A DNA stretch of 64,000 nucleotides from an uncultured Candidatus Binatia bacterium (lineage in GTDB: Bacteria > Desulfobacterota > Binatia > UBA9968 > CAXXLF01). Below the pieces are notes generated by a model. The model was not told the origin of the DNA, searched no databases, and worked only from the letters and a program-made list of their open reading frames with translations. Shown in pieces: positions 2,488 to 42,273 of the stretch. Every line of letters begins with the position of its first letter. Positions within the stretch are counted from its first letter, which is position 1. The translations under genes and the position numbers were made by a program. The stretch lies in NCBI GenBank assembly GCA_965218425.1, contig OZ244621.1, positions 4,288,001 to 4,352,000 on the forward strand. The letters are read 5' to 3'.

Positions 2488-3294
2488 TTACGTAGGCCTC
2501 AACATTGAGCGAGTAAGCCTCCCCGCTTTTACATCGTCACTGAACTTCTGAACAGCCTCAAAAAGCGAAACCGCAACTGGACCGTAGGTGGCCCGTGGGT
2601 GATCCAACTCCCCCAGATTAAATCCGACCGTGTTTGGTGTGACGCCTAAACGACCATCGCCATCTCCCGCACCGGCAACCATCGTCAATACACTGAGCTC
2701 TTGGGCCATCTTTCCAACGGTCTCCGGCGGCACTCGAGTAAGAAGCAACGAGAATGCCCCTGCGGCTATTAGAGCACGCGCATCACGCCATACTTTGTCT
2801 TCCTCAATGTAGGCGTCTTTAGCGTCCGCGGGTCGATCCCTCCTACCGGTTCCTATGGTGGCCTGTGGTGTCAATCCTATATGCCCCATGACTGGGATGC
2901 CCGCTTTAACTATGGCCTCTACCGTAGAAGCGTGATCGGCCCCCACTTCTAACTTCGCAGCCTGAGCTCCACCCTCCTGAATCAATCGAGCGCTGTTGAA
3001 AATCGCCTTTTCCTTGCTTATTTGATATGTCATAAAGGGCATGTCACCTATCACAAAAGCTCGCTTCGCCGCACGACTTACTGCCCGAGTCATCAGCACC
3101 ATTTCATCCATGGTCACCCAATTATTGTTTTCGTGTCCCAGGAGATAACGTCCGCCACTGTCTCCTATAAGAATAATTTCCACACCCGCCCGGTCGATAA
3201 TGCCAGCCGTTGTATAATCATAGGCCGTCATCGCCACAACTTTTTTCTTGTCCCGCTTCATATCCAGCAATTCCGATATAGTGAGTCTTGCCAT
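2488..3294 (-). CDS. PanB-fold (ketopantoate hydroxymethyltransferase-like) protein, divergent active site
   Basis: TAYDY, IGDSGGR, GDMPF, AKLE, GHIGLTPQ. LLLTRVP replaces canonical VLECVP. Confidence 0.85.
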   Translation of the reverse strand: MARLTISELLDMKRDKKKVVAMTAYDYTTAGIIDRAGVEIILIGDSGGRYLLGHENNNWVTMDEMVLMTRAVSRAAKRAFVIGDMPFMTYQISKEKAIFNSARLIQEGGAQAAKLEVGADHASTVEAIVKAGIPVMGHIGLTPQATIGTGRRDRPADAKDAYIEEDKVWRDARALIAAGAFSLLLTRVPPETVGKMAQELSVLTMVAGAGDGDGRLGVTPNTVGFNLGELDHPRATYGPVAVSLFEAVQKFSDDVKAGRLTRSMLRPT

Positions 3295-3306
3295 ATAGTC
3301 TCCCTA

Positions 3307-4308
3307 TCAATCGCTATTTGAATCCCCCACCAGGTTTTTTGGAAATAGGCTCTCCACGAACAGGTGGTTGCGGATAAGGCCCTCTTGAAGAGCGCCTTCT
3401 ATAAAGTCTTCCAGGGTGTGCTGGTTCGCCTTTATACCGTACGGCCATGGATCGTCTCCTACGAGGTCGTAGAGGTCTTTGACAGTGCCCTTTTTGAGCG
3501 GCCAATGCCCGGTGGGAAGGAGAAATTCAACCGCTTTAGCTTGGCCCACCTTTTCTTTTGCCTGCCGGAACATCTCATAGAGACTCTCGGCGATCCAAGG
3601 GTGGTCAGAGAGCAAGGTCTCGCGCATTACAACCACATTCGTTAATGGCAGAACTCCTGTTTTCCTGTAATAGGTCCTCTGCGCCTCTAAAACGTCAGGA
3701 TAGGCATCCCGCCGGACGCTCTCAACAGCCTCTTCCGGTAGTTCCCGCTCGGGTCGGCCTCCTGGACCTAGGCCGATGACTGCATCGACAGCTCCTTCCA
3801 CCAGAAGTCGTGGCGTGTCTCGTCCGAGTTCGTCGGTCTTCACTTGCACCCCCGACGGGTATGTTTGACTCGAAAGGCGTTCCGGCCTGGAGGTAATCCA
3901 GACAATGTCGTGCGGTGCAATACCGTGCATCTGCCACAAGAGACGCCGCCCCCAGAGCGATGATGTGGTCCAGTACAGATGCAGGCCGATCCGCTTACCC
4001 TTCAACTCGTTGAGGTCGCGCGCCTCGGTGTTCTTGTACAAGTGAATATGGGGCTGTATGAAGCGTCTCGTCGTAAAGACAGGCAAAGCGAGCACGGGAT
4101 ACCCTTGGTCACGGGCGGCAATGAATGTCGCAAGGGATGTCTCTCCAACGTCGAGACTGCCCTCAAGTACGCTCTCAAGGGCACCATCGTGACCTTTGTG
4201 CTTGTGCAGCTCGAGATCGATTCCACTCGGAGTTACATTTCCCTGAAGAATTGGCCAGTGATAAGGCGTGTTGGCGCTTATGGATAAGGTGATTTTGGTC
4301 AGTGCCAT
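3307..4308 (-). CDS. 4,5-dihydroxyphthalate decarboxylase-like protein, second copy
   Basis: LDVGETS, LPVFTTR, ELKGKRIG, YYRKTGVLP, GDDPWPYGIKAN. Start moved from 4359 to ATG 4308 (4314 possible). Confidence 0.7.
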   Translation of the reverse strand: MALTKITLSISANTPYHWPILQGNVTPSGIDLELHKHKGHDGALESVLEGSLDVGETSLATFIAARDQGYPVLALPVFTTRRFIQPHIHLYKNTEARDLNELKGKRIGLHLYWTTSSLWGRRLLWQMHGIAPHDIVWITSRPERLSSQTYPSGVQVKTDELGRDTPRLLVEGAVDAVIGLGPGGRPERELPEEAVESVRRDAYPDVLEAQRTYYRKTGVLPLTNVVVMRETLLSDHPWIAESLYEMFRQAKEKVGQAKAVEFLLPTGHWPLKKGTVKDLYDLVGDDPWPYGIKANQHTLEDFIEGALQEGLIRNHLFVESLFPKNLVGDSNSD

Positions 4309-4484
4309 GGTCATCAATCTCTTATTCAGAATTTTTGACCTGTAAACGGCGCACACCACTTTTGCGGCCAGTGGTAAGATAAAAGATAACAGGACCGGTT
4401 TGAAGAGCCGTTCGGTAGTTTAATAATTGATGCATTCTTACCTTAGAGATGCTGAAGGTGTATGGCAAACGCATCGCGTATTGG

Positions 4485-5657
4485 TTACCGCCAGCCTCCT
4501 GGCCTGGAGAGGATTTCCGGGGGAATTGGGTCGGTACGGTAAACCACGGAGGGCATCGTACACTCCACGCCCTCCTTTGCGTTGGCCTCAATAAAATATC
4601 GCCGAACCTCTGGATCCTCGTCTTCATACTCAATGAGCCGGCCACCCTCACGAACAGTCGTAACGACACCGCCATCGTCACGATCACGCGCCACTGCCAG
4701 CGGATTAGAACCTCCGTAGCATGCCACGTGGCGCGCGGGTGTCTCTCCCGTGCTCATGTGCTGATGGAACCAGCCGTCCGGAGGTGCGTAAATACTGTTC
4801 GGTCCCCATTGGACCTGGACAACTTCGTCACCGTGCCCATCTCGCCATGGGTACAACCCTAGCTCCTTGGGCCATAGGTTGACGTAGCCATTTCCCTTGA
4901 GGCCCACGAGTACAGCGCCGGGGCCATGGTAATGGGCCTTGTGGTATCTGCCGACGGGCCACTCGGAGATATGGCCGCTGGGAAACCCTCCTGCCATCCG
5001 GTAGAGCGTATGATGGCCGCCCGCCACCTTTTGTTCGTAGTCGTCTAAGAACTCCCTCTTCACGTCACTGATGAAGTTCGTGTACCACATTGCAGTGTTA
5101 TATCGCCCTCGTCGAACACGGTTCTGGGTTTGGTTGAAGTAATCGTCCTGGCCGCCATAATCTTCCGTAAAGTCATGCTTGCAGTTGAAGACAAATCCGA
5201 TCTCGTTTAATCCGTTCATTACCTTCGGTGCTGTGGTTATGGCAAAAAAAATCACCGGCTCTTGTCCGCCGTTGTAAAGCCGGTAGTACGTATTCTTGGG
5301 TGGAGCAAAGAGGCTTCCAGGTTCCCACTCGAATGTCTTCTTGGACCCCTTCTCCTGCCAAACCTCGGCTGCTCCTCGACCTTGCAAAATCAGTGTAAAT
5401 TGCTCGTATAGGTGGTGTTGGACCTCGAGCGCTTTGCCGCTGGGAATCTCGCACACGAACATACCGCGCTCGGATTGAAATGTCCCCTTGAGTTCGATGA
5501 AAGTCCCCAGACCGCCAGTGCGAGCCCAGGGCCGACGGGGCAGTGCCGTTATGTCCGCTACGCCTGTCACGTCATAATGGATGGGGATACCTTCGCCTTG
5601 AATGAACTCTTGGTATTTGAACTCTTTTTGGATATTACTATTCTTCTGCTCCTGCAT
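4485..5657 (-). CDS. Bicupin protein (distant gentisate-dioxygenase-like cupin)
   Basis: HHLYEQ...G.G..EVW...FEWEPGSLFAPP N-domain; HKAHYHGPG...WFHQH C-domain His motif. Confidence 0.75.
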   Translation of the reverse strand: MQEQKNSNIQKEFKYQEFIQGEGIPIHYDVTGVADITALPRRPWARTGGLGTFIELKGTFQSERGMFVCEIPSGKALEVQHHLYEQFTLILQGRGAAEVWQEKGSKKTFEWEPGSLFAPPKNTYYRLYNGGQEPVIFFAITTAPKVMNGLNEIGFVFNCKHDFTEDYGGQDDYFNQTQNRVRRGRYNTAMWYTNFISDVKREFLDDYEQKVAGGHHTLYRMAGGFPSGHISEWPVGRYHKAHYHGPGAVLVGLKGNGYVNLWPKELGLYPWRDGHGDEVVQVQWGPNSIYAPPDGWFHQHMSTGETPARHVACYGGSNPLAVARDRDDGGVVTTVREGGRLIEYEDEDPEVRRYFIEANAKEGVECTMPSVVYRTDPIPPEILSRPGGWR

Positions 5658-7311: not shown

Positions 7312-8367
7312 TCATACAGGGAAAACCACTAGCATCCGGTTGGAATTGAAAAGCCAGGCCTCCGAGAGAGAGAGAAGCTCGGGCTTCCTTCCTTCCATTG
7401 CGCCGGCCAAGCAGATCCAGTTTAGAAACTCATGCTGTCCTGAATCGATGATCTGCTTGGGATCCAAATCCCGCCACTTATATTGCTGTCCCGCAAACAG
7501 CTCCGCACGTCGTGCCCGGTCCGCCTCCATGTCTGGCCACAGGTAATGATGCTTTGTGGTGAGAGACCCATGGGACCAGCTCGCAGAGCCAATTACCACT
7601 GCTCGCCAAGGGCTCTCCTTAATGATCTGAGATACCGCCTTTCCCATGTCATAGCAGCGCCACGGCAGAGGAGACGGCGGAGGCGTTACCGGCATGCCTT
7701 CGAGCTTGCGCCCGATCTGCTTGGTATCCTCGATCTTGACACCCGGGGGCGGTATCCGAAGGTCGACCCCGTAGCAGTTGACCGCAATGGGCACTACCGG
7801 GTGAGGAAATTTTACATGCTCTGTTTCGTCAAGATCCATATAATCAACCGTCCACGTGAACGCGTGTCCATAGGACGGCCCGTGCCCAAGCTTCCACGAG
7901 CAACCGACTTCAAACCCTTTGTAGATCAGCTCGCGCACGATGTGGTTCGCCGCCTGTGGATGCCCTTTAATTGTAACCTTGGGCTTGTACCGGGAGCCAC
8001 CTCCGGCAACGCGCTCATCGCAGAGAACTTCATCAATGGCAAATACGGTGAAAGGCGTGAGCAGGTCGTCCTGGACGTTCTCGTACTGATCATCGGCAAA
8101 AATCAGGACGAAGTCCGGCTTAAAATCGTCGATTGCTTTGCGCGCTAGCCGGAACCCCTTTTGAAGCTCGTCCTTGTATTTCTGCGCCGCTTCGCGTCCC
8201 TCGTCATCGCCCCACTCCTTTCTCATCTCCTCCGGCCAGTTCTTCGGATCCCGTAATTCCACTGGCGTGTCCGGATGCGCGAGGTTCTTGCGAAGATAGT
8301 TATCCATTCGGCCAATGGAGGCTCGAACTAAAGTATGTGTGCAACCGATTCCTAATATCTCACCCAT
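7312..8367 (-). CDS. LigB-family (class III) extradiol ring-cleavage dioxygenase, divergent type
   Basis: GIGCTH, ADDQYE, GHAF, SASWSH, GQHEFLNW motifs. Confidence 0.8.
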   Translation of the reverse strand: MGEILGIGCTHTLVRASIGRMDNYLRKNLAHPDTPVELRDPKNWPEEMRKEWGDDEGREAAQKYKDELQKGFRLARKAIDDFKPDFVLIFADDQYENVQDDLLTPFTVFAIDEVLCDERVAGGGSRYKPKVTIKGHPQAANHIVRELIYKGFEVGCSWKLGHGPSYGHAFTWTVDYMDLDETEHVKFPHPVVPIAVNCYGVDLRIPPPGVKIEDTKQIGRKLEGMPVTPPPSPLPWRCYDMGKAVSQIIKESPWRAVVIGSASWSHGSLTTKHHYLWPDMEADRARRAELFAGQQYKWRDLDPKQIIDSGQHEFLNWICLAGAMEGRKPELLSLSEAWLFNSNRMLVVFPV

Positions 8368-8522: not shown

Positions 8523-9311
8523 TCATTCGGAGCGAGAGGAAGGAGCCTTGCCCGCCCGAGCTTCTGCGACATATTCACACATGGCATCGTAAATGATGCG
8601 AGCCACAGGTCCATAGCGAGAGGTCGGTTTGTCGATCTGACTTGCGGCGATGCCAAGCATATTTGAGGTTCCGCCAATTGGGGGACCGTCTGCGTTATAC
8701 TGTCCTACGGTAAATATCGATAACTCTTTCGTAATGCGTGCAGCGATAGGGGGAGGAATTCGGGAGAGGACAATACCGAATGCCCCGGCATCTTGGATGG
8801 CATGGGCGTCGCCCAGCATTGCTTCTTCGTCCATATCGTAGACCTGATCGGTGCTAATCGTTGCCATCCCCATGCTCATCATCGGGGTGGCTCCGATGTG
8901 GCCCAGGACGGGAATACCGGCATTTACGATCGCCTCCACAACTGGCGCAAACCGTTTCCCTCCCTCTAGCTTGACTCCGTCTGCGCCGGCTTCTTGAATG
9001 AAGCGTCCTGCGTTCCGGACCGCTTCGTCAATGTTGACCTGGTAGGACATAAAGGGCAGATCGCCGACGACAAAGGCGCGCTCGACTCCACGAGCCACCG
9101 AGCGCGTCATGATCAACATCTCCTCCATCGTGCAGGACTGGTTGTTCGTATGGCCGAGGACGACACGTCCGCCACTATCGCCAACTAGAATCAGGTCGAT
9201 CCCGGCGCGGTCCATGATGCTCCCCATCTGATAGTCGTACACAACGGCCGTCACGATCGCTTTTTTCTCCCGTTTCATTCGCCACAGATCCGGGATCTTT
9301 ACCTTATCCAT
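8523..9311 (-). CDS. PanB-fold protein, divergent active site
   Basis: VYDY, VGDSGGR, GDLPF, VKLEGG, GHIG. VLSRIP replaces VLECVP. Confidence 0.85.
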   Translation of the reverse strand: MDKVKIPDLWRMKREKKAIVTAVVYDYQMGSIMDRAGIDLILVGDSGGRVVLGHTNNQSCTMEEMLIMTRSVARGVERAFVVGDLPFMSYQVNIDEAVRNAGRFIQEAGADGVKLEGGKRFAPVVEAIVNAGIPVLGHIGATPMMSMGMATISTDQVYDMDEEAMLGDAHAIQDAGAFGIVLSRIPPPIAARITKELSIFTVGQYNADGPPIGGTSNMLGIAASQIDKPTSRYGPVARIIYDAMCEYVAEARAGKAPSSRSE

Positions 9312-9375: not shown

Positions 9376-10596
9376 CTATCCGGGCATTGCTGGTGCCATC
9401 ATCAGGACCGGGGATGATGTCTGCTGTCGCAAATGGACTTCTTGTCTTTTTCGTGAGGACTCCATAATGGCCAGGCAGGCCTCAAGGCTTGCTCGACCCC
9501 AGGCGGCATCGGGAAACACCGGGCGGTTCTCCTCAAGGCTAGCCTTGATTTCCGCCACTTCCGGCGCCCCCCTACCAATCGATGCCGGAGGAAGAAGAAT
9601 TTCTTCTCGCCCCTTTTCCGTATTGACGTAGAGACCGTGCTCCGATTGCCGTATATCCCCCCGCTCACAACTCACAATGGTCACGCCAAAAAAGTCCTGG
9701 GCCACGTCGCCCTTCGCAGCAGCCATCTCCCTCCGTTCGAGATCTTTCATGCCAGTCGCCTCCAGCTTCCGATAGAATTCCTCTGATTGAACCGGAGCTG
9801 TCGGAGTACGCCGAGGCCCGTAGATAACTTCCTGAGGCATCTTCGCCCCGCTCTCTCCACGGTCCCATGTGATCTCAAAAGTGGTGAAATGGCCGTAGCC
9901 GCTGAAGTACATGAGGGCGGTAACGCCCGACTCGAAATCCAACAACGCACCGTAATTCCCTTCGACATCAAAGTAAGGATACCAACGGCCAGTCACTCCC
10001 CGTACTGAACGAATTATACCGCCAGCCAAATAGCGGACGATGTCCATTTGGTGCGGTCCCTGCCGAAAAACCACGCCACCGCCACGGTCGGGGTCCAAAG
10101 TCGCCGCCTCCCAGGGCAATCGTATCCAACTGTTGTAATTCAACGTGTTGATATGATACACACGCCCCAGTCGGCCGCTTGCAATGAGCTCTGCCATGGC
10201 CTTGATGCTGGGACGATGGATTTTGCTATGCCCTTGAACATAGCGTACCCCATACCGCTCCACAGCCTCCACCATGCGGTTCGCCTCATCCATAGTGATC
10301 GCCATAGGCTTTTCGCAAATAACATGCTTGCCGCATTCGGCAGCAATGATAGTGTGCTCTGCATGAAGATGGTTTGGCGTGGCGATATAGACTACATCCA
10401 CCTCACCCTTCCGGCACATCTCCTCCACACTCGTGAAAGTGGCGATACCGAACTTATCTTTGAATAGCTTTAGGGCCTTCGGCCGAATGTCTGCCGCTGC
10501 TGTGAACTTCACTCCGTCAACTTTGTTGAAACCGGGTACAACCTGATAAGAGGCCGCCCCTAACCCGGCCATTCCGACCCGTAACTCTAGACCCAC
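9376..10596 (-). CDS. Gfo/Idh/MocA oxidoreductase, cis-dihydrodiol dehydrogenase-like (Pht4/OphB)
   Basis: GMAGLG Rossmann motif, CEKPM, RQGPHQMD, CERGDIRQS. GTG start with GGAGGG SD. Confidence 0.85.
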   Translation of the reverse strand: MGLELRVGMAGLGAASYQVVPGFNKVDGVKFTAAADIRPKALKLFKDKFGIATFTSVEEMCRKGEVDVVYIATPNHLHAEHTIIAAECGKHVICEKPMAITMDEANRMVEAVERYGVRYVQGHSKIHRPSIKAMAELIASGRLGRVYHINTLNYNSWIRLPWEAATLDPDRGGGVVFRQGPHQMDIVRYLAGGIIRSVRGVTGRWYPYFDVEGNYGALLDFESGVTALMYFSGYGHFTTFEITWDRGESGAKMPQEVIYGPRRTPTAPVQSEEFYRKLEATGMKDLERREMAAAKGDVAQDFFGVTIVSCERGDIRQSEHGLYVNTEKGREEILLPPASIGRGAPEVAEIKASLEENRPVFPDAAWGRASLEACLAIMESSRKRQEVHLRQQTSSPVLMMAPAMPG

Positions 10597-24030: not shown

Positions 24031-24813
24031 TTAATAGCGGCGGACCTCTCGCACCGCCTTGATATACTCCTCTGCACCGTCGTACATAACTTTCGCAAGG
24101 TTAAGACCATGGCGAGGTGGCCCATCCAGGGTTGCCACGCTGTAGGTGAAGCCGGTAATTCGCCCATCTGCCTCGGGCCCGGCGTGGGACGACCCGCCAA
24201 GCACGGGAATGGCGACCTTGCGAGATACCTCGGCGTAGATCTCCGGGTTCTTCACATGCGTGAGGTCGAGCAAGGAAGCACCAATCTCCTCCAGCAGTCT
24301 GGCCTCCTCGAGGATGCGGTTGTGCTCGCGGTTAGCGTCTGCTTCGGAAACATTGTCGAAACTGCCGATCTTTAACGTCGACTGAGGTGAGAAACCGAAC
24401 TGCGTCCAGACGGGGATGCCGGTCTTGACGATGGCTCGCACCGAGTCAATGTTAGCCACGGCGTTGTCGATTTTGACCATCTCGGCGTGACCCTCCTTGA
24501 CCAACCGGATTGCGGCACGCACCGCTGCATCCGGCCCCTCTTGGGGCGGTCCAAACGGCATGTCGCAATTCACTAGGGCCCGCTTCGCGCCACGGCTAAC
24601 GGCACCACAAGCCAATACCATGAGGTCAACGGTGGTTTCGTGGTGAGTTAGCTGGCCAAAGCGGTTGCGGCCGATGCTATCGCCTACAGTCAGGATATCG
24701 ATGCCGACCCGGTCGAGGATCTGGGCTTGCTGAAAGTCGTATGTAATGGCCGCCGCGATCTTCACTCCGTCGCGCTTCATCCGCTGAATATCAGCAACAT
24801 TAAGCTTTGCCAT
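24031..24813 (-). CDS. PanB-fold protein, divergent active site (subtype 2)
   Basis: ITYDF, VGDSIGRN, CDMPF, MVKIDN, VWTQFG, LDLTHV. Confidence 0.85.
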   Translation of the reverse strand: MAKLNVADIQRMKRDGVKIAAAITYDFQQAQILDRVGIDILTVGDSIGRNRFGQLTHHETTVDLMVLACGAVSRGAKRALVNCDMPFGPPQEGPDAAVRAAIRLVKEGHAEMVKIDNAVANIDSVRAIVKTGIPVWTQFGFSPQSTLKIGSFDNVSEADANREHNRILEEARLLEEIGASLLDLTHVKNPEIYAEVSRKVAIPVLGGSSHAGPEADGRITGFTYSVATLDGPPRHGLNLAKVMYDGAEEYIKAVREVRRY

Positions 24814-27519: not shown

Positions 27520-27715
27520 TGAAATCAACCTCCTCGTTATTTCGATTTCTACCGGAACTCACTCAGTGGTTGCATGTTAGAGATATAGGTTATTCGTCAA
27601 AGAACATGAAAGTGTAAAAAGTGTTGTCCTCCCCTGCATGTGGTTTTAGTTGGCACAGTCCGCCGAAGAGACTTGTGGCAGTGGGTGATCGATTGGGCTG
27701 TTATCGATTGTTTCG

Positions 27716-35304: not shown

Positions 35305-36771
35305 TTACCGGTGGGCTTGGACATGAGCAAAGAGTGTTTTCCATTTTTTTTCGATATCCCTGCGCAACTCTCGGCTATTCATATTAACTTCAGGGAACTT
35401 GTCTTTCCACTCGTAAGGTCGGCAGGCGTTAATTACGAGGTTGTGCGCGTTGTATTTTTCCCTACCTTTCATGGATGGATCCGATGCCTGGCCAGGTGGT
35501 ATCCTTGGGTCCAATTGCCACACTGCCGTACCCGGAACGATGGTAACCCCCGATTCTGGGATGCAGCGGCTGGCAATGGCCCAGAGCACCTCTTCTGTGT
35601 ACAGCAGATCAATGTCTTCATCCACCAGCACCCAAATATGATTTCCACTATGTTGATCTCCCCCAGGCTCTAATTGGCGGATCACGTCTTCAACGTGTCC
35701 TGCGTACATTTGCTTCACCTTTACCACCCGAAAACCTGGGGCAACCACGGTAACCACTTCTTGAACGCCCTGAATACCGGCTTGTTCAAGTCGTCTTCGC
35801 ACACGAAAATCAATGTTCGTGAGCTCTTTATAAGCTCGAATGTGCCGAATAGGAGGAGAGCCGAAGATTATACAGCCCTCCCGGTAGTGAATGGCTGCCA
35901 CTTCAATGACCGTTTCGAGTCTGCGACCATGTCCATAGTAGCCCGTCCACTCGCCGAAGGGACCTTCGGGTAATAATTTTTCCTCGGGCGAAGGAATAAA
36001 GCCCTCAATAGCTATCTCTGCTGTGGCAGGGATTGGGAGGCCGGTAATAGGTCCTTTGACCACTGGATACGGACTTTTGTGAAGGTAACCTGCCACTTCA
36101 AACTCGGAGACCCCATTGGGGCAGTGATAGACACTGCCTCCGGAGAGCAGTGTCAGGATGGGTTCCTGCCCTACGGAAACCACCACTGGGCATTTTTCCC
36201 CACGGCTCCAATGCTTGCGTCGGATAAAATCACCGTGCCGATTCGGTTCCATGAAGAGGCCGCAGGTATTTTTGTCGGCGATGCAAACCCGGTATGAGCC
36301 CGAGTTGACAAATCCAGTGTCAGGGTCCCGTTGAATAACGCATAGTCCCGTCCCTATGTATCGATCAATGTCTTTGTCATGCCATCTCGGGGTGGGAAAG
36401 TGAAAAAGGTCGACATCTCCACCCTTGAGAGTATTGTCGAACACAGGGCCAGAGTAAACTTCGCACATGGGTATGGGTTGAATTTCACCGATCACGCGGT
36501 TCCACTCTTCAGCCATCTCCACAAGAGGACGCTCATGATTGAGGCCTAGGGCAAGCGCCGTTCGCTCCGGTCTTGTACAGAGGTTGGCAGCCAACCCAAA
36601 ACTCTTGGGATAATCAGGGACCTCATCGAAGAGGAGTGCCGGCCCGCCTCTTTCCACCATCAATTCGGTAATAACCCCAATTTCCAGATCCCAATGAGCA
36701 CCTCGAACTCGTTCCAGCATTCCTAACTGATCGAGCTTTTTTAGGTAATCCCTTAAATCATTCCACAACAT
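35305..36771 (-). CDS. UbiD-family prFMN-dependent (de)carboxylase
   Basis: DLRDYL..L...G.L, GPALLFD, NSGSYR, EIAIEG, PEGPFGEWTGYY, VDEDID. Confidence 0.9.
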   Translation of the reverse strand: MLWNDLRDYLKKLDQLGMLERVRGAHWDLEIGVITELMVERGGPALLFDEVPDYPKSFGLAANLCTRPERTALALGLNHERPLVEMAEEWNRVIGEIQPIPMCEVYSGPVFDNTLKGGDVDLFHFPTPRWHDKDIDRYIGTGLCVIQRDPDTGFVNSGSYRVCIADKNTCGLFMEPNRHGDFIRRKHWSRGEKCPVVVSVGQEPILTLLSGGSVYHCPNGVSEFEVAGYLHKSPYPVVKGPITGLPIPATAEIAIEGFIPSPEEKLLPEGPFGEWTGYYGHGRRLETVIEVAAIHYREGCIIFGSPPIRHIRAYKELTNIDFRVRRRLEQAGIQGVQEVVTVVAPGFRVVKVKQMYAGHVEDVIRQLEPGGDQHSGNHIWVLVDEDIDLLYTEEVLWAIASRCIPESGVTIVPGTAVWQLDPRIPPGQASDPSMKGREKYNAHNLVINACRPYEWKDKFPEVNMNSRELRRDIEKKWKTLFAHVQAHR

Positions 36772-36812: not shown

Positions 36813-38012
36813 TCATTCAGGGCTCGGCACCTGGTGCGACATGAAGATTTCTTTCCTTTCCCTTGCTGACTGCATGATGGCGAGCACCACTTCCAGGGTC
36901 GCCTCTCCCCATCTCCCATCGTGGAACACTGGCCGGTCTTCAGTTACCGAACGGTACAACTCGTCGAGTTCTGCTTTACGGCTTCGGGCCGTTTTTGGCA
37001 CTGGGACTTCCCAGGTCTTCTCATCACCATAAATGATCAGACCGTCAAGGGACTGCCGAATATCACCGTGTTCACAGCTGACGATTGTGATCCCGAAATG
37101 GGAGTGGGGATAATCGTCGCTTCGGATCCGGGGATCTTCCTTTCCGCCTCCAAATCTCTTGCCTTCTTTAATGACCCATTCGTCTTCGGGGGATTTTAAA
37201 TTTCTGATAACGGCCCGTGCCGCTATATTCTGATCCGGCGTCCGTTTTGCCTCACCCATCCAGGAAGTGAACTCTGCCGTATCAAAATGGGCATAGCCAG
37301 TAAATACGACTGTGGCTGGCGTACCGTCCTCAAACTCGAGATAGCAGACCCAGGCACCTTCAGCCCTGCGCGATGCATCCCAGACACCTGTCATGGCTCT
37401 TACGCTCCGTATCATACCGCCCCCTAACAACCGAATTATATCGACGATATGGGGCCCTTGGTTATAAATGATATTGCCCCCTTTAGTGGCATCCAGCTCT
37501 TGGGGCATCCGGGGCCGATACATGAAATCCTGATAATGCCAATTGTTGATCATACACAGGCGACCAAGCTCCCCACCTTTGATGATCGTTCTCATCTTAC
37601 GGACAGGTGGATCAAAGCTATGCGTATGCCCGCACAGGAGTTTTACTCCGTTGCGTTCGCAGGCTGCGTTCATGGCTTCACATTCTTCGATTGTGAAAGC
37701 CATTGGCTTTTCTACAATCACATGCTTTTTTGCCTCTGCTGCCAGAATCACATGTTCTGCGTGGTATTGGTTTGGGGTACAAACGTAGATCGCATCGACG
37801 TTAGGGCTCTTGCACAGATCCTCCACCTTCTCATAAGCCTCACTGCTGAATTCACGTGTGAATTTTTCCCGGGCCTGAGCCCGAGGATCGGCTGCCCCAG
37901 TCAATTCCAAATGAGGGTGGGCAATGATTTGCGGCGATAGTTGCGCCGCCGCTACACCAAGGCCGGCTATGCCAAATCGAAGCGTTGGTTCCTTGCCTAA
38001 CATTCCCGCCAT
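36813..38012 (-). CDS. Gfo/Idh/MocA oxidoreductase, cis-dihydrodiol dehydrogenase-like
   Basis: GIAGLG, VEKPM, GHTHSFD. Very similar to 13361-14572. Confidence 0.9.
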   Translation of the reverse strand: MAGMLGKEPTLRFGIAGLGVAAAQLSPQIIAHPHLELTGAADPRAQAREKFTREFSSEAYEKVEDLCKSPNVDAIYVCTPNQYHAEHVILAAEAKKHVIVEKPMAFTIEECEAMNAACERNGVKLLCGHTHSFDPPVRKMRTIIKGGELGRLCMINNWHYQDFMYRPRMPQELDATKGGNIIYNQGPHIVDIIRLLGGGMIRSVRAMTGVWDASRRAEGAWVCYLEFEDGTPATVVFTGYAHFDTAEFTSWMGEAKRTPDQNIAARAVIRNLKSPEDEWVIKEGKRFGGGKEDPRIRSDDYPHSHFGITIVSCEHGDIRQSLDGLIIYGDEKTWEVPVPKTARSRKAELDELYRSVTEDRPVFHDGRWGEATLEVVLAIMQSARERKEIFMSHQVPSPE

Positions 38013-38085: not shown

Positions 38086-38814
38086 CTACATCAAAGCGGT
38101 GACGATTGCGCCGAACAAGCCCTCGTTCAGCCCAGCTGGAGCTACGTTCCAAGTTTGCCGTGCAGGAAGATTACTTCGGTCAGGGAATATTTTTTTCCAT
38201 GCCTCGTTCGTCACGCCACGGTAATCATCACTCATCAGATAGAGCATCACGTCGACGATATTGTCGACGCTCCCACCCGTGGACTCGGCCCATGTCTTGA
38301 CCTGCTGAAAAAGAGCATGGGCCTGCTCTTGCGGGTCCGCCGGAAGGGTTTTTGACCCAGGCAACCGTCCAACAAGTAATGGAGAATAAACCAGGTCTCC
38401 TCGATTTCCGGAGGGAGCGGATGGATCATCAAGGATAGCAGTGAAATGTGCCGCAAAACGCCAGTGGGTCCCGTGAGGGGAAACGTTTAGAATATGACGG
38501 GCAGGACGAACCGCGGGATCCGGAAACATCTTGAGCCATTCCTGATTGATGGCCTGACGGTCCTTGTCATCAAATACGTAGACAGCCATCGTAGCGATAT
38601 CGGCGGGAGTTCCCCCACCGGCTTCCACAAGACCTCGGATTCGTCCAAATAACAGAGCCGCGTCTTCAGAAGCATCGGCCCCTTGCTCCCTGTTGGGCCC
38701 CACTGGGCCTAGGAGCGATGAAAATATAAATTCCTCCGCCCTGATGCCTTCGGGTACCGGTGAGTGAACACGGTCTCGCCCTGGGACATGAATCGACTGT
38801 CTTTTTGGTATCAT
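38086..38814 (-). CDS. RidA/YjgF-family protein, tandem two-domain
   Basis: EAGGGTPADI...FPDPAVRPARH and ESTGGSVDNI...FPDRSNLPARQ. Confidence 0.78.
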   Translation of the reverse strand: MIPKRQSIHVPGRDRVHSPVPEGIRAEEFIFSSLLGPVGPNREQGADASEDAALLFGRIRGLVEAGGGTPADIATMAVYVFDDKDRQAINQEWLKMFPDPAVRPARHILNVSPHGTHWRFAAHFTAILDDPSAPSGNRGDLVYSPLLVGRLPGSKTLPADPQEQAHALFQQVKTWAESTGGSVDNIVDVMLYLMSDDYRGVTNEAWKKIFPDRSNLPARQTWNVAPAGLNEGLFGAIVTALM

Positions 38815-38892
38815 GCGAAATCCTTCCTTTAATCCAAGAATTTGCTTTCAAATTTACCGAACCTTTACAATCCAAACTGATCCCAAGCAGGC

Positions 38893-40125
38893 CTACTGCG
38901 ATTGACCGCCATTTTCAGTACGATTTTTTTCTTTGGAGTATTTTCGCCAGTCTTCAGAGGCAGGGATACGCGCACGCCACACCGGGATTCGGAACCTGTC
39001 CGGATAGGGTACTACACGACTCTCAGCCATTTGCCGAATAATACGAAGCATTAGGTTCCGCGCTACAACGATGGCCCGGTCGGTGGAACCCAAGTGCTCT
39101 TTAGTCCGGTCCTGGATGGGGCCCTCACCTTCGGTGGCCCAAGCGTCATGGACCTGAAACGCGCTACCCATCCCAATAAATGTTCTGAGATTCATCTCGT
39201 CCGGCTCCTGTAGATACCGATTGGCCCGGTTCCGCACCAACCGGTAGTCGGGTGTTAGGTCAGAACGTTCCGACTGCACCTTTTTCTTCTCCATGGGTTT
39301 TTCTTGTGTGAACATTATTACGTATTTCCAATGGTGGGTGTCGTCAATCGGTACATGCCAATTCACCGTATAGCCATCATCTGTGCCCGAAGGAAATGCA
39401 CACAGGTTGGGGAGTATAAAGTTGGTAGTCCTAATATAAGTTGTGCTGCTACCCGCGGTCTCTGCCCTTATAACCCGCACACCAAAGGGGGCCTCTTCCA
39501 CCTCCATGTCTATAAACCAACGCTGGCTCGCAGGTGGAGGTGGGGGTGCGTTCAGTCTTCCACCATAGGTCCTGTGGAGAAACGGTACATGGATGGGGTC
39601 TATATTTCCTTCGTTGGCCTGTTGGTAGTTACATTCTTGGTAAATTTTGCTGTTAAAGCGATAGTCGTCTGATGCTTTCAGAAATTCGAACTCTGGAGTG
39701 GGAGGGGGGTCGCCCGGCCCCAGGTAGGCCAAAACAATTCCCCCCATCTCAATGCATGGATACCAAGGATGGCGTATGGTTTTGTGAAAGGTGCTAGCTT
39801 CCGGTTCGCCAGGCTGCTCAAGACACCTGCCGCGAATATCATAGACCCAACCATGATAGAGACAGCGCAGACCGCCGTTTTCGATACGGCCATAGCTCAA
39901 ATCCGCCCCACGATGGGAGCAGTGTAATTCCAGAAGCCCCACTCGGTTGAACTCATCACGAAAAAGTACCAGGTCTTCCCCCAAAAGACGGACGGGTCGA
40001 GGACGGCTGCCAGGTGGAAGCTCTTCTGCCAATGCTACCGGCTGCCAGTACCGACGTAGAAAATGACCGCAAGGAGTACCGGGGCCAATTCTTGTCAGCA
40101 AATCATTTTCGTCTTGCGATAACAT
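38893..40125 (-). CDS. Rieske oxygenase large subunit (phthalate 4,5-dioxygenase-like)
   Basis: Start moved to ATG 40125 (GGAGG SD). CSH...CLYH, EGNIDPIH...LH, VHD. Confidence 0.9.
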   Translation of the reverse strand: MLSQDENDLLTRIGPGTPCGHFLRRYWQPVALAEELPPGSRPRPVRLLGEDLVLFRDEFNRVGLLELHCSHRGADLSYGRIENGGLRCLYHGWVYDIRGRCLEQPGEPEASTFHKTIRHPWYPCIEMGGIVLAYLGPGDPPPTPEFEFLKASDDYRFNSKIYQECNYQQANEGNIDPIHVPFLHRTYGGRLNAPPPPPASQRWFIDMEVEEAPFGVRVIRAETAGSSTTYIRTTNFILPNLCAFPSGTDDGYTVNWHVPIDDTHHWKYVIMFTQEKPMEKKKVQSERSDLTPDYRLVRNRANRYLQEPDEMNLRTFIGMGSAFQVHDAWATEGEGPIQDRTKEHLGSTDRAIVVARNLMLRIIRQMAESRVVPYPDRFRIPVWRARIPASEDWRKYSKEKNRTENGGQSQ

Positions 40126-40144
40126 CGATCCAAGCCTCCGAGCA

Positions 40145-41106
40145 TCATTGCCAGTAGGCGAATGCGCACCCACAGCCTGTTCCAGCGGGCGAGCGGTAGC
40201 ACGGTTCGTAGGCCAAGAGGTTCATGGCCATGTCGGCCTCCTCCATGGCGCCAGCCACCACAGTCCAGTTACGAATCTCGCCGGTGCCCCAGTTGAACAA
40301 CTCTTCGGGGTGGCTAACCAGTTTTTTCTCATCCTTCGCCTGCATGGCCTCCAGAACGGAGCGGTCCAGGGCTTCATCGATCACCGTATGGGATAGACCG
40401 CCGCTGCCAATTAAAGCAACAGTCTTATCGCTATCCCAGGACACTACGGCACGTTTCAAAGCTCTTCCTAAACTGTAGCATCGTTTTAAGGTTGGTTGAT
40501 TGGGGGCATAGTATGTGTTCAGAATCACAGGCACTTGGGGAGGGACCGATCCTTTCATAATTCGTCCGTAAATAAAGTCAAAGGCATGGCCGATAGAACG
40601 CCCTTGCTGTACATTGCGGCAGCTGGCGATATCGAAGCCCTCGGCATTCAAATACCCTATCACATGCCGCCCGAGAGCGGGTTCGCCATATAATTGCAGG
40701 CAATCCTCCTTTTTTGGGGTGCGAATGCGACTGGAATGGGGAACATGGGGTATCCGTTCACCCCAAAAAACTCCGATAGCGGGAATTTCGTCTTCAGGCA
40801 TGAAAATTTCGTGAGTATCGTCGCCAACAATAATAACCACCTCCGGAGCTACCTGTTTAAGCAGCTCTCCAAGTTGGTCAATGCTCTTCTGGCAGGCCTC
40901 GTGCCGGCGCTGCCACACCTCCGGTGTTAGCTCTTTTCCGATCCAGCTATCCCTCTCCCGGATCATCTGCTCGATATCGAGCTTCATGGGTATACCGCCC
41001 CCTTTGGGATTCGCCATGTCCCTCTTCCCAGCCTCAGCCCACCTGTCTACTGTCCCATTTAGGCTGGGTGCATGACTCGCACATACTCCAGGACCATATG
41101 TGCCAT
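40145..41106 (-). pseudogene. DesZ/LigZ-like extradiol dioxygenase with a 1-nt frameshift near codon 7 (pseudogene or sequencing error)
   Basis: ATG 41106 has an AGGAGG SD. Adding one G at 41088-41089 restores MAHMVLGVCASHAPSLNGTVDRW..., collinear with paralog 22431. Confidence 0.8.
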
Positions 41107-41481
41107 AGGGACCTCCTGGTTTCTGTTCAAGGTTCGTCAGTTCGCGCTGCTTGGTCTGTCACAAGGCCAACATTACAAGGTTTAGAAATGACCCTGAGTG
41201 CCTTTGGCTCAGGCAGAAGAGCTTAACAAGGGAAGTAAGTCATGAGCCACGATAAAAAAATAAAATTTTTGCTGTGGCAATCAGAGCTTATCACTTGTAC
41301 TACCGGCACTTACACATCGATCTATATGCTAGTCAATGACAACCTGTCAAGAGACCGTAATGATGAGTAAATCTGAGACCGAGCGAAGGGATGATGCCCC
41401 TGGTTGAAGATATTGCACGGAGGTAAGGTAATTTCAGGGATTGACGACAAGGCAGCCAACGAAAACCAAGCTGCCGACACC

Positions 41482-42273
41482 TTAGAAGGGACGAGCCGCA
41501 CGCACGTCATCGACATACTTTTTAGCAAGCTCAAGAACCAACTTGGCAACCTCGTCCCCGCGACCTGGAATACGCCCGCCTTGAAGAAACGTAGCCCTAT
41601 AGGTGAACCCGGAAATGCGTCCGTCCGCCTCAGGGCCCGCAGTCGACGATCCGCCCAAGACGGGAATTCGACATTTCTCCGCCACTTCGGCATAGATACT
41701 GTGATCCCTGACATGGGTCAAATCCAACATGGTTGCACCTGCCTCCTCCAGAGCTTTCGCCTCGCTGAGGATCTTTTCTCGCATTCGTTTCGCCATATCC
41801 TCTGTGGACGTGTCCAATGACCCGGCGCTCAGGGTACTCTGTGGAGAAAACCCAAACTGAGTCCAAACAGGAATTCCACCTCCGGCAATTCGTCGAACGG
41901 CATCTAAGTTACTTGCAGCATTATCCAATTTTACCATCTCCGCGTGCCCTTCCTTCACCAAGCGAATTGCCGCCCTGACAGCTGACTCGGGTCCTTCTTG
42001 CACTGGGCCAAAAGGCATATCGCAACTCGCCACGGCCCGTTTCACCCCACGGGTCACGGCGAGGCATACAATAATCATTTGCTCCACGGTCACATCGTGA
42101 TGGGTCGCCTGCCCCCACATGTTCCGCCCCACACTGTCACCCACAGTGAGGATGTCCACCCCTGCAAGGTCCATGATTTGCGCCATTTGATAATCGTAGG
42201 TGATTGCGGCGGAGATTTTTTTCTTCTCACGTTTCATTTGTTGCAAATCTGCTACCGTTAATTTCTCTGCCAT
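41482..42273 (-). CDS. PanB-fold protein, divergent active site (subtype 2)
   Basis: ITYDY, VGDSVGRN, CDMPF, MVKLDN, VWTQFG, LDLTHV. Close paralog of 24031. Confidence 0.85.
   Translation of the reverse strand: MAEKLTVADLQQMKREKKKISAAITYDYQMAQIMDLAGVDILTVGDSVGRNMWGQATHHDVTVEQMIIVCLAVTRGVKRAVASCDMPFGPVQEGPESAVRAAIRLVKEGHAEMVKLDNAASNLDAVRRIAGGGIPVWTQFGFSPQSTLSAGSLDTSTEDMAKRMREKILSEAKALEEAGATMLDLTHVRDHSIYAEVAEKCRIPVLGGSSTAGPEADGRISGFTYRATFLQGGRIPGRGDEVAKLVLELAKKYVDDVRAARPF

Follow-up and report, generated by a model that had tools for sequence, protein, structure and literature searches.

Making vitamin B5 is the usual role of the PanB fold, which raises the question of what four PanB homologues do among aromatic-degradation genes in an uncultured Candidatus Binatia bacterium. 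A first-pass annotation had placed them at positions 2488, 8523, 24031, and 41482 of a 64,000-nucleotide stretch of its genome (assembly GCA_965218425.1, contig OZ244621.1, positions 4,288,001 to 4,352,000; hereafter, the window) and proposed that they form one repurposed enzyme family. All four are present, on the minus strand, as full-length members of Pfam family PF02548; we refer to them as W1 to W4 (Table 1).

Four PanB-like genes with altered active-site residues

Pfam profile searches gave nearly full-length matches of W1, W2, W3, and W4 to PF02548 at 231, 235, 178, and 188 bits, respectively. All four fall below the NCBIfam equivalog cutoffs for PanB, NF001452 (272) and TIGR00222 (207.55), against which W1, for example, scored 231.8 and 192.7. 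W1 and W2 also have a weak PF13714 match, and the Pfam scan found no match to PF03328 or PF03737 in any of the four. Every homologue to which any source in our searches gives a name is called PanB.

We read the motifs from a seven-way alignment and from residue-by-residue alignments to Mycobacterium tuberculosis and Escherichia coli PanB. All four proteins retain the metal and carboxylate ligands (Asp45, Ser46, Asp84, Lys112, and Glu/Asp114). Position 181 is Thr (as in W1) or Ser instead of Glu, and position 49 is Arg throughout; aligned to E. coli 1m3u, W2 carries Met49 to Arg, Glu181 to Ser, and Cys182 to Arg. The alignments thus agree with each motif described previously: GDS, D(M/L)PF, and Lys kept, Glu lost, Arg gained, and KxD and TQFG in two proteins. 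AlphaFold models of W3 (pLDDT 91.4) and W1 (pLDDT 88.4) have PanB as their top structural matches (TM about 0.8), PanB structures being the best Foldseek matches of W3; a second tier at TM about 0.6 consists of members of the isocitrate-lyase/PEP-mutase superfamily, namely Mg-dependent lyases and decarboxylases that act on 2-oxo acids.

Table 1. PanB-like genes of the window and the genes of their modules
Feature	Positions	Strand	Evidence
DHDPS-family protein (class I pyruvate-aldolase/lyase fold), end of W1 module	116..1075	-	PF00701, 114 bits
Second 4,5-dihydroxyphthalate-decarboxylase-like NMT1-fold protein, downstream of W1	1246..2217	-	PF09084; 33% identical to 3307-4308, E 9e-55
W1, PanB-like, subfamily T1	2488..3294	-	268 aa; GDSGGR, DMPF, KLE, GHIG, LLTRVP
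NMT1-fold protein, homologue of 4,5-dihydroxyphthalate decarboxylase, 12 bp upstream of W1	3307..4359	-	PDB 9jp7, E 8.8e-37, residues 5-323 of 333; PF09084
Cupin protein upstream of W1 module	4485..5657	-	PF07883, weak
Divergent LigB-family protein downstream of W2	7312..8367	-	PF02900, 50 bits; 22-25% identical to other window LigBs
W2, PanB-like, subfamily T1	8523..9311	-	262 aa; GDSGGR, DLPF, KLE, GHIG, VLSRIP
GFO/IDH/MocA oxidoreductase, homologue of 4,5-dihydroxyphthalate (cis-diol) dehydrogenase, 64 bp upstream of W2	9376..10596	-	PDB 7wzd 222 bits, 3moi 245 bits, both full length
Rieske/LigXa_C oxygenase, first gene of W2 module	10645..11889	-	Pfam
LigB-type extradiol dioxygenase, W3 module	22431..23390	-	PF02900, 78 bits; best PDB match protocatechuate 4,5-dioxygenase beta chain
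RidA-like protein, 36 bp downstream of W3	23542..23994	-	50% identical to RidA-family ORF 34681-35286, E 1e-43
W3, PanB-like, subfamily T2	24031..24813	-	260 aa; GDSIGR, CDMPFG, KID, TQFGFSPQ, LLDLTHV
Rieske/LigXa_C oxygenase, phthalate-4,5-dioxygenase-like, 42 bp upstream of W3	24856..26079	-	PDB 9ina, 7fhr, 7fjl at 211-215 bits
Amidohydro_2 protein, close LigY homologue	26518..27528	-	PDB 5vn5/6e6i, 378 bits, full length
UbiD-family decarboxylase, W4 module	35305..36771	-	PF01977, 167 bits; below all NCBIfam equivalog cutoffs
GFO/IDH/MocA oxidoreductase, W4 module	36813..38012	-	Pfam; 39% identical to 9376-10596
RidA-family protein, W4 module	38086..38814	-	PF01042
Rieske/LigXa_C oxygenase, W4 module	38893..40173	-	Pfam; 55.7% to 24856..26079, reciprocal best match
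LigB-type extradiol dioxygenase, W4 module	40145..41017	-	Pfam; 64% identical to 22431..23390
W4, PanB-like, subfamily T2	41482..42273	-	263 aa; GDSVGR, DMPF, KLD, TQFG, LDLTHV; 62% identical to W3

Two subfamilies outside the canonical PanB clade

The genome contains seven PanB-family genes, one canonical and six variants (W1 to W4 and two further copies). The canonical gene, at the separate panB-panC locus that the first-pass annotation suggested seeking, encodes Glu181 and scores 396 bits; it lies 1.75 Mb from the window and shares a 4-bp overlap with panC. The variants never adjoin panC, and exactly one canonical copy accompanies them in 6/6 genomes examined. Two trees (67 and 92 rows, the larger built with the two defining columns dropped) exclude all six variants from the canonical clade with SH-aLRT 99. 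Instead of a single family, they form two subfamilies, of which T1 is rare and T2 widespread. T2 accounts for at least 543 stretches across species-representative genomes, and its members come from seven named phyla.

Asp45, Asp84, and Lys112 are invariant (100%) in 153 canonical, 53 T1, and 206 T2 sequences. Glu occupies position 181 in 100% of canonical sequences, where T1 has Thr (92%) or Ser (8%) and T2 has Thr in 100%; these figures are circular because this column defined the groups. Among columns independent of that definition, T1 has Arg49 in 85% and Arg182 in 62% of sequences, and T2 has Gln136 in 100% and an Asp two residues ahead of position 181 (Asp179) in 92%. In addition, the Gln of the canonical DGQ is Arg in 85% of T2. 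The Arg after GDSxG, previously taken as a mark of the whole family, therefore distinguishes T1 and not T2, in which only 26% of sequences have Arg49. The exchange of an anionic Glu for new cationic residues is supported. In T2, the nearby Asp may serve as an acid; T1 lacks any such substitute.

Catabolic gene neighborhoods

The Pfam scan of 48 window ORFs detected 6 Rieske/LigXa_C, 6 LigB, 4 GFO/IDH/MocA, 5 UbiD, 3 RidA, and 1 Amidohydro_2 proteins and no panC among the 48, confirming the setting of Rieske, extradiol dioxygenase, and decarboxylase genes reported earlier. Profile searches of the window found no FAH, DmpG, PrpF, or HpcH, and an HMM built in this analysis found no RraA-like gene there. 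The Amidohydro_2 protein near W3 resembles LigY, a hydrolase of the biphenyl meta-cleavage product, more closely than LigJ, the 4-oxalomesaconate hydratase (238 bits). The DHDPS-family protein scores far below the dapA cutoff (111 versus 206), the cupin has no match in a PDB sequence search, and the RidA-like protein beside W3 has no Pfam match at 1e-5. The Rieske, PanB-like, and LigB genes of the W3 and W4 modules encode proteins with 56%, 62%, and 64% identity, respectively, the Rieske and LigB pairs being reciprocal best matches, and by sequence the trio was duplicated as one unit.

A LigB gene lies within 4.1 kb of five of the six variant copies, compared to 5.3% expected for random positions, so this proximity exceeds chance; the five are not independent, however, because four of them share one 40-kb island. 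Rieske and LigB genes are both absent within 5 kb of the variant at 4.10 Mb (G7).

Homologues in other genomes likewise sit near genes of aromatic catabolism, and canonical PanB loci do not. A Rieske gene occurs within 5 kb of the PanB-like gene in 46/80 T2 loci, representing at least seven named phyla, and in 0/79 canonical PanB loci, with the qualifications that families were assigned by HMMs made in this analysis from these same clusters and that the control loci are metagenome contigs of other taxa. When the count is restricted to T2 loci flanked by 8 kb or more, the proportion is 40/57. LigB genes are near just 7/80 T2 loci; therefore, the ring-cleavage link proposed earlier is lineage-specific, and the strongest T2 partner family-wide is a phthalate-dioxygenase-like Rieske oxygenase rather than an extradiol dioxygenase. 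T2 neighbors above curated cutoffs include LigK/PcmE aldolase and PhtC 3,4-dihydroxyphthalate decarboxylase, and an RraA-like or HpcH aldolase match lies within 5 kb in 17/80 loci. For T2 clusters carrying LigJ-like and LigK genes, a scan of 80 neighbor proteins from 14 loci found no PrpF. The alpha/beta-hydrolase that often lies beside T2 is not a clear-cut hydrolase of meta-cleavage products, its best PDB matches being esterases (46 bits) and HsaD/BphD (36 bits).

Proposed reaction and alternatives

From the family assignment, conserved residues, tree placement, and gene neighborhoods observed here, we infer, with modest confidence, that the six variants are neofunctionalized PanB-fold enzymes that would act Mg-dependently on 2-oxo acids in lower aromatic pathways and not as ketopantoate hydroxymethyltransferases. 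The earlier claim of repurposing agrees with their scores, clades, and context; folate independence and this substrate class are the most likely reading, and the reactions proposed below are candidates. The PanB site that chelates a 2-oxo acid via Mg2+ would be kept, the Glu181 base gone, and cationic residues gained. The substrate would be a Mg2+-bound 2-oxo acid or 2-hydroxy-dienoate enol arising from extradiol cleavage or meta-cleavage-product hydrolysis; without folate, it would yield a metal-stabilized enolate, and the new Arg residues would hold the extra carboxylate of ring fragments. Arg49, Arg182, and the T2 Asp may reach the metal site.

The variants are most likely lyases or isomerases. 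Tentatively, we favor a PanB-type C3-C4 lyase that makes or breaks a 4-hydroxy-2-oxo acid by hydration and/or retro-aldol cleavage, with 4-carboxy-2-hydroxypentadienoate, 4-hydroxy-4-methyl-2-oxoglutarate, and 4-carboxy-4-hydroxy-2-oxoadipate as candidate substrates. According to PMC7610986, E. coli PanB can work without a cofactor as a class II aldolase of 2-oxo acids. A weaker second candidate is an isomerase, enol-keto or allylic, in place of LigU, and a beta-decarboxylase of oxaloacetate-like acids is a rather doubtful third. The 17/80 T2 loci that already have an aldolase match nearby argue against an aldolase role for T2 at those loci and favor the isomerase.

Comparison with known enzymes frames these choices. 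PanB/KPHMT (EC 2.1.2.11; PDB 1m3u, 1oy0, 3vav, 1o66) shares with the variants the full-length Pfam family, the TIM-barrel fold, and the residues binding Mg2+ and the 2-oxo acid; the variants differ in Thr/Ser181, in the new Arg49 and Arg182 of T1 and Gln136, Asp179, and DGQ-motif Arg of T2, and in their sub-cutoff scores, separate clades, lack of a panC link, and catabolic context. The class II (metal-dependent) pyruvate aldolases of meta-cleavage pathways, HpaI/HpcH and LigK/HMG-CHA aldolase, would share a Mg-stabilized pyruvate-type enolate, C3-C4 cleavage of 4-hydroxy-2-oxo acids, a putative Arg near the metal, and the same pathway position, but the variants match neither PF03328 nor PF03737, LigK belongs to another fold family, and the co-occurrence with T2 in 17/80 loci indicates that the two are not simply interchangeable. 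LigU/GalD, the 4-oxalomesaconate tautomerase/isomerase, could be analogous to T2 in readying a 2-oxo-enoate for a LigJ-type hydratase, although its PrpF fold is unrelated and metal-independent. The structural second tier (PA4872 oxaloacetate decarboxylase 3b8i, 2,3-dimethylmalate lyase 3fa3, and 2-methylisocitrate lyase) comprises Mg2+ lyases that cleave C-C bonds of oxo or hydroxy acids, their substrates being di- or tricarboxylates, with just 12-18% sequence identity to the variants and different catalytic loops.

It is unlikely that the variants still perform hydroxymethyl chemistry, either by trapping formaldehyde from Rieske-type demethylases (an alternative raised by the first-pass annotation) on a 2-oxo acid or tetrahydrofolate, or by running the PanB reaction in reverse to strip a hydroxymethyl branch that a Rieske methyl hydroxylase had produced. 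The most conserved T2 partner is indeed a LigXa_C-type Rieske oxygenase, a family that also includes O- and N-demethylases and methyl hydroxylases, and the best NCBIfam match of these proteins is the methylsterol monooxygenase SdmA, yet at 49-78 bits against a cutoff of 600. Free formaldehyde is used by PanB in vitro, according to PMC7610986. However, the Rieske protein adjacent to W3 matches phthalate 4,5-dioxygenases far better than the demethylases NdmA and DdmC (about 65 bits only), and the cis-diol dehydrogenase and dihydroxyphthalate decarboxylase homologues of the modules imply ring dihydroxylation, with no formaldehyde. Moreover, the presumed enolization base Glu181 is lost, Pfam scans found no folate-metabolism families among 48, 38, and 80 neighbor proteins, and the genome has 90 Rieske genes versus only 6 variants. 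Marginally less likely still is action before ring cleavage on an aromatic or dihydrodiol acid, for example as a Mg-dependent decarboxylase/tautomerase of a dihydroxyphthalate-type keto tautomer. Decarboxylase homologues on both sides of W1, the diol-dehydrogenase homologue directly preceding W2, and PhtC-like (class II aldolase fold, 19/80) and NMT1-fold decarboxylase (40/80) homologues at T2 loci would fit, but the conserved site suits an alpha-oxo-carboxylate chelate rather than an aromatic acid, and the same modules already have dedicated decarboxylases.

Loss of the catalytic Glu, together with close linkage to Rieske and LigB genes and duplication along with them, might indicate pseudo-enzymes or binding/regulatory subunits of oxygenase modules; we consider this very improbable, given metal- and substrate-binding residues invariant over hundreds of sequences and strongly conserved subfamily-specific residues, as selection on an active site would produce. 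Least probable, to the point of being nearly negligible, are ordinary redundant ketopantoate hydroxymethyltransferases with another base, such as the conserved T2 Asp, which lies on the same strand as position 181. Full-length PF02548 matches, intact metal and carboxylate ligands, and the name PanB fit that explanation, but the sub-cutoff scores, the placement outside the canonical clade, the lack of adjacency to panC, the canonical copy in 6/6 genomes, the missing acid in T1, and the Rieske contrast between T2 and canonical loci argue against it.

Our preferred reading remains a neofunctionalized Mg-dependent enzyme. The PanB-like variants are a new form of a known fold, carried as PanB in the annotations that name them, and they were probably recruited to modules that break down carboxylated aromatics such as those of phthalate or biphenyl-dicarboxylate type.

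PanB-family genes of the window and of the genome

The four PanB-like ORFs of the window (W1 to W4, see the table) were tested as PanB (KPHMT, EC 2.1.2.11). All four span PF02548 over its full length (profile positions 1-255 or similar), and all four miss both curated NCBIfam cut-offs for PanB, with 169 to 232 bits against 272 for NF001452 and 137 to 193 bits against 207.55 for TIGR00222. We aligned them residue by residue to M. tuberculosis PanB and E. coli PanB (1m3u), using E. coli numbering, and every motif named in the first-pass annotation was upheld. Asp45, Ser46, Asp84, and Lys112 are retained in all of W1 to W4. W1 and W2 also keep Glu at position 114 and the GHxG-motif His at position 136, where W3 and W4 have Asp and Gln, respectively. 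All four ORFs have Arg opposite E. coli Met49, and Glu181 is replaced by Thr in W1, W3, and W4 and by Ser in W2. The 2003 structure papers on E. coli PanB reportedly describe Asp45, Ser46, Asp84, Lys112, and Glu114 as the Mg2+ and carboxylate ligands, and Glu181 is said to be the catalytic residue.

Features of the window, with their positions and matches
Feature	Coordinates	Strand	Position	Matches and remarks
W1	2488-3294	-		PF02548 231 bits; NF001452 232; TIGR00222 193
W2	8523-9311	-		PF02548 235 bits; NF001452 232; TIGR00222 186
W3	24031-24813	-		PF02548 178 bits; NF001452 169; TIGR00222 137
W4	41482-42273	-		PF02548 188 bits; NF001452 179; TIGR00222 153
NMT1-fold paralog	1246-2217	-	opposite side of W1	33% identity to the 3307-4359 protein
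NMT1-fold gene	3307-4359	-	12 bp upstream of W1	4,5-dihydroxyphthalate decarboxylase 9jp7, E 9e-37
GFO-family gene			64 bp upstream of W2	4,5-dihydroxyphthalate dehydrogenase 7wzd, 222 bits
ABC permease region	14668-19563	-		BPD_transp_1
404-aa ORF	16610-17824		within the permease region
Rieske gene	24856-26079		42 bp upstream of W3	phthalate 4,5-dioxygenases 211-215 bits; NdmA, DdmC demethylases ~65
Amidohydro_2 gene	26518-27528	-		LigY of Sphingobium SYK-6 (5vn5) 378 bits, full length; LigJ 238 bits
tRNA-Asn (GTT)	42995-43070	-	in 945-bp gap upstream of W4
Mut7-C RNase-domain gene	43218-43748		adjoins tRNA-Asn (GTT)
Split TPP decarboxylase genes	50284-51380	-	flanked by cupin gene and UbiD gene

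AlphaFold models are confident for both W3 (pLDDT 91.4) and W1 (pLDDT 88.4), and the top Foldseek matches are PanB structures (1oy0, TM 0.82 to 0.83). These are followed by the isocitrate-lyase/PEP-mutase superfamily at TM 0.56 to 0.66 (3b8i, 3fa3/3fa4, 3eoo, 2dua, and 9hhy), with matches that include PA4872 oxaloacetate decarboxylase, 2,3-dimethylmalate lyase, 2-methylisocitrate lyase, and phosphonopyruvate hydrolase. The Mg-dependent oxo-acid lyases and decarboxylases of this superfamily share the fold of W1 and W3 (TM ~0.6). An ESM Atlas search leaving out PF02548 gave no usable match, and none of W1 to W4 matched PF03328 (HpcH/HpaI class II aldolase domain) at E <= 0.01.

The window spans positions 4,288,001-4,352,000 of the genome, a single 4.46-Mb contig with seven PF02548 genes. 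One of these, at 2.53 Mb, is a canonical copy (396 bits; GDSLGS, VKLE, GHVG, and VVLEGIP) that overlaps panC (PF02569, 351 bits) by 4 bp; the separate panBC locus for which the first-pass annotation had proposed to look therefore exists. Within the window, panC is absent among the 48 ORFs (Pfam). The remaining six PF02548 genes, namely W1 to W4 and two further copies at 3.96 Mb (G2) and 4.10 Mb (G7), all lack Glu181 and all carry Arg49. In each of five other genomes examined, a single Glu181 copy accompanies one to five variants.

Two subfamilies and their active-site residues

We built two maximum-likelihood trees, one of 67 rows and one of 92 rows that left out the two defining columns, both by quick search, with SH-aLRT support, and unrooted. 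In both trees, canonical PanB (the Glu181 form) makes up one side of a branch with SH-aLRT 99, and all six variants lie outside it; nesting among canonical PanBs, which would have spoken against the first-pass annotation, was thus not seen. One subfamily, T2 (W3, W4, and G7), is a clade with SH-aLRT 100 in both trees. The other, T1 (W1, W2, and G2), is placed between canonical PanB and T2, with weak monophyly (SH-aLRT 73 and 84). The T2 motif set comprises CD[MLF]PFG, K-x-D, x-Q-F-G, L-D-x-T, and DGR, all five of which occur in W3 and W4; the T1 set, GDSG(G/A)R, K-L-E, (G/A)H(M/I)G, and (T/S)-(R/G) at positions 181-182, is present in W1 and W2.

T1 is rare. A homology search listed it in 47 of its 120 top clusters, and five full-length T1 sequences and five fragments with Arg49 were among the 150 best-scoring of 1.84 billion representatives clustered at 50% identity. 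A T1 profile run against 400 genomes sampled from the same phylum detected no T1 beyond the genome of the window, the best other scores being ~300 bits (the canonical level) versus 401 to 472 bits for T1; because these genomes yielded no further T1, its context is known from five loci only (W1, W2, G2, and the loci L121 and L221). T2 is common. Two peptide patterns specific to T2, run against a single genome for each species, gave at least 598 stretches, of which at least 543 were confirmed as T2. For the neighborhood survey we used 80 loci, all retained as T2 by motif: 20 from Acidobacteriota, 20 from Actinomycetota, 16 from Chloroflexota, 14 from Pseudomonadota, 4 from Vulcanimicrobiota, 3 from Ca. 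Binatota, 1 from Myxococcota, and 2 with no phylum assigned. Cultured organisms that carry T2 include Pusillimonas caeni (L085), Acrocarpospora catenulata (L070), and Mycolicibacterium stellerae (L067). Among the homologues in two search listings, those of T1 and T2 named by a public source are always called 3-methyl-2-oxobutanoate hydroxymethyltransferase. A 2.9-Mb genome titled Dehalococcoidia (G402, the source of L022 and L047) holds six T2-type genes (L210, L211, L216, L218, L219, and L225) and one canonical copy; in two of its T2-types, and in two from another genome (G401), the match is interrupted by a single in-frame stop codon (TAG or TGA).

Residues were compared across 153 canonical, 53 T1, and 206 T2 sequences, of which a few repeat copies from the genome itself. 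Because column 181 and the K-x-E/D column served to define the groups, their values are circular; Glu181 is accordingly found in 153/153 canonical sequences by definition of the class. Asp45, Asp84, Pro86, Lys112, Gly140, and Pro143 are invariant in all three groups. T1 sequences have Arg49 in 85% (Lys in 8%), His136 in 100%, Thr181 in 92% and Ser in 8% (the defining column), and Arg182 in 62% or Gly in 32%. In T2, Gln136 occurs in 100%, position 182 is Asn, His, or Gly, and the Gln of the DGQ motif, found in 100% of canonical sequences, is replaced by Arg (85%), Lys (8%), or His (7%). Position 49 of T2 is varied (Val 27%, Arg 26%, Ile 16%, His 10%). The gain of Arg49 noted in the first-pass annotation is therefore real in all four window copies and a hallmark of T1, but it does not extend to T2 at large, where it is a trait of the branch nearest the window.

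Two positions before 181, T2 carries Asp in 92% of sequences and Asn in 8%, and the acid may have been relocated to position 179. Judging by the DSSP strings of the models, T2 residue 179 lies on a beta-strand and should point the same way as 181. In T1 and T2 alike, neutral and cationic residues have taken the place of an anionic one, an exchange that would fit a substrate with an extra carboxylate where ketopantoate carries its hydroxymethyl group.

Gene neighborhoods

We surveyed six-frame ORFs within 5 kb of each homologue locus, using HMMs made from proteins that Pfam had assigned to a family. A Rieske gene lies near 46 of the 80 T2 loci (40/57 where the flank is at least 8 kb), including 17/20 in Actinomycetota, 11/20 in Acidobacteriota, 10/16 in Chloroflexota, and 4/14 in Pseudomonadota, so the link between Rieske and T2 genes holds inside each large phylum. 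Other families near T2 were NMT1-fold (40 loci), Zn-dependent alcohol dehydrogenase (34), alpha/beta-hydrolase (33), Amidohydro_2 (26), class II aldolase fold (19), RraA-like (13), cupin (13), LigB (7), HpcH (7), and GFO (0). Control loci came from a metagenome scan with the T1 alignment and patterns common to canonical PanB, which gave 79 canonical loci and one T1. The canonical loci scored 0/79 for Rieske and for every other family but alpha/beta-hydrolase (1), in a control drawn from other taxa, on contigs many of which are short (flank of at least 8 kb in 21), and with HMMs tuned to the variant clusters. Under this comparison, the association with aromatic-catabolic genes expected in the first-pass annotation extends to homologues elsewhere.

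Some neighbors of T2 score above curated cut-offs: LigK/PcmE 4-carboxy-4-hydroxy-2-oxoadipate aldolase (scores of 362 versus a cut-off of 179 and 338 versus 304.5) and PhtC 3,4-dihydroxyphthalate decarboxylase (309 versus 200). PDB matches of the alpha/beta-hydrolases are weak and mix esterases with meta-cleavage-product hydrolases. At the T1 loci L121 and L221, LigB is directly upstream; UbiD, Rieske, GFO, and cupin genes are nearby. A conserved protein of ~150 to 170 aa, without a Pfam or NCBIfam match, is encoded between the Rieske and T2 genes at L067 (9465-9980), L070 (9464-9970), and L043 (8273-8719); its HMM (~170 aa) matches in 30/80 T2 loci (25/57 well-flanked ones), mainly in Actinomycetota and Acidobacteriota.

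Neighbors in the window were named by Pfam and by searches against solved structures (PDB). The two NMT1-fold genes beside W1 look like transport binding proteins (Pfam NMT1/THI5-like), yet they are homologues of 4,5-dihydroxyphthalate decarboxylase, and many "NMT1-like binding proteins" around these clusters could be decarboxylases. The LigY-like Amidohydro_2 gene adjoins LigXa_C-type Rieske and LigB genes, and a dehydrodivanillate-like biphenyl module may be present around it. LigB genes of the window, among them the one at 22431-23390 in the W3 module, match protocatechuate 4,5-dioxygenase and gallate dioxygenase weakly, all below the NCBIfam equivalog cut-offs. Paralog comparison showed the unannotated ORF directly downstream of W3, at 23542-23994, to be RidA-like; a PDB sequence search with the cupin adjoining W1 gave no match. 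The Rieske/T2/LigB trio is duplicated as a unit (W3-W4 62%, Rieske pair 55.7%, and LigB pair 64% identity), and the two Rieske genes, like the two LigB genes, are each other's best match among the paralogs of the window. No promoter or terminator signal around W4 exceeded shuffled expectation.

Across the 4.46 Mb, our own HMMs (E <= 1e-8) counted ~90 Rieske/LigXa_C, 72 UbiD, 69 cupin, 43 Amidohydro_2, 32 NMT1-fold, 24 LigB, and 19 GFO genes; 72 UbiD genes in one genome is unusual by itself. Conventional lower-pathway enzymes are few genome-wide (6 FAH, 1 DmpG, 1 PrpF, 1 HpcH, and 3 RraA-like), and the HMM search placed none of them inside the window. All three RraA-like (LigK-type) matches are grouped at ~0.05 Mb with LigB, GFO, and Rieske genes, probably a conventional protocatechuate 4,5-cleavage cluster. 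LigB lies within 4.1 kb of 5/6 variants versus 5.3% expected at random, although four of these five share one 40-kb island and are not independent. Rieske genes lie within 5 kb of 4/6 variants versus 18% expected, and the LigB nearest to canonical panB is 790 kb away.

Several other features of the window were recorded. A 404-aa ORF without a Pfam or NCBIfam match lies between two proteins of 580 aa that contain two ABC permease stretches apiece, and two small neighboring genes form a split TPP decarboxylase with separate C-terminal and N-terminal ThDP domains. A 212-nt sponge metatranscriptome contig equals 25257-25468, inside the Rieske gene upstream of W3, with zero differences; no RNA contig covered W3 in the reads searched, from which neither expression nor silence follows. 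Marine metagenome contigs 95 to 99% alike cover parts of 22706-23919. These matches hint that the organism or a near-identical strain is present in marine or sponge samples.

Candidate functions and their implications

Judged by sequence, the variants sit stably in modules resembling phthalate and dehydrodivanillate pathways. (The pathway names LigXa/Z/Y/W, LigU/J/K, and Pht3/4/5 are used from general background, except where PDB or NCBIfam titles give them.) Given an intact Mg/2-oxo-acid site, loss of the proposed enolization base, new conserved cationic residues, catabolic modules, and a canonical PanB coexisting in all genomes examined, we infer a folate-independent enzyme. Such a variant would bind an aliphatic 2-oxo-acid or the corresponding dienol, once ring cleavage or hydrolysis of the meta-cleavage product has set it free, and would turn it over through a metal-stabilized enolate without folate.

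Ketopantoate, the product of PanB, is a 4-hydroxy-2-oxo-acid. According to PMC7610986, E. coli PanB accepts many 2-oxo-acids as a class II aldolase that needs no cofactor. Given these two points, hydration or retro-aldol cleavage is the smallest functional step from PanB, and we tentatively propose that the variants hydrate and/or cleave carboxylated 4-hydroxy-2-oxo-acids. The proposal suits the window, which has LigY-like and LigB genes without a LigJ/LigK-type partner. Counting against an aldolase role for T2 at large, 17/80 T2 loci already have an RraA-like or HpcH aldolase match. A LigU-like enol-keto or allylic isomerase would fit these aldolase-bearing loci better, and by analogy we consider it a somewhat doubtful candidate overall; PrpF was not found among 80 neighbor proteins of 14 T2 loci. 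Beta-decarboxylation of oxaloacetate-like acids is kept as a candidate because it does not need the base and has precedent in the wider superfamily, but as an analogy it would be a rather improbable outcome.

Handling of formaldehyde or one-carbon units is unlikely, since the Rieske partners resemble dioxygenases, the modules contain diol dehydrogenase and decarboxylase homologues, and no folate gene was found among the neighbors scanned. Action on an aromatic acid ahead of ring cleavage has a low probability. We regard a non-catalytic role for proteins that retain the invariant metal-site residues as very unlikely, and it is hardly conceivable that they are true but redundant PanBs, coexisting with a canonical copy and placed outside its branch. 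PcmF of Arthrobacter keyseri was considered as a PanB-like protein and dropped, as a figure legend in PMC8431788 names pcmF as a putative alcohol dehydrogenase.

Returning to the folate-independent enzyme, the variants represent a known fold and a putative new functional variant of it, not a new kind of system. A search of the full-text literature, with subscription journals and supplements outside its scope, turned up no paper that describes PanB-like enzymes in the catabolism of aromatics, and the main text of a SAR202 pangenome paper (PMC6946804) does not mention panB, pantoate, or hydroxymethyltransferase. With Glu181 lost and compensating residues conserved, the variants offer a clear example, open to testing, of an active site rewired on a scaffold that is well studied. 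The PanB scaffold is already in biocatalytic use as an aldolase.

If the vitamin-B5 enzyme label is mistaken, a pantothenate step is being counted in metabolic reconstructions where a catabolic one belongs. Because phthalate-dioxygenase-like oxygenases accompany T2, its function would supply a missing step that recurs wherever phthalate-like, lignin-derived, or plastic-additive aromatics are degraded. In its fullest form, which we put forward only as a possibility, the PanB fold would have given rise, on at least two occasions, to a C-C lyase or isomerase that works without folate and is paired with a co-duplicating Rieske oxygenase, and T2 would be an enzyme so far missing from the picture of how bacteria catabolize aromatic polycarboxylates, widespread across at least seven phyla, replacing or preceding LigU/LigJ/LigK and helping this paralog-rich organism to mineralize carboxyl-rich aromatic dissolved organic matter.
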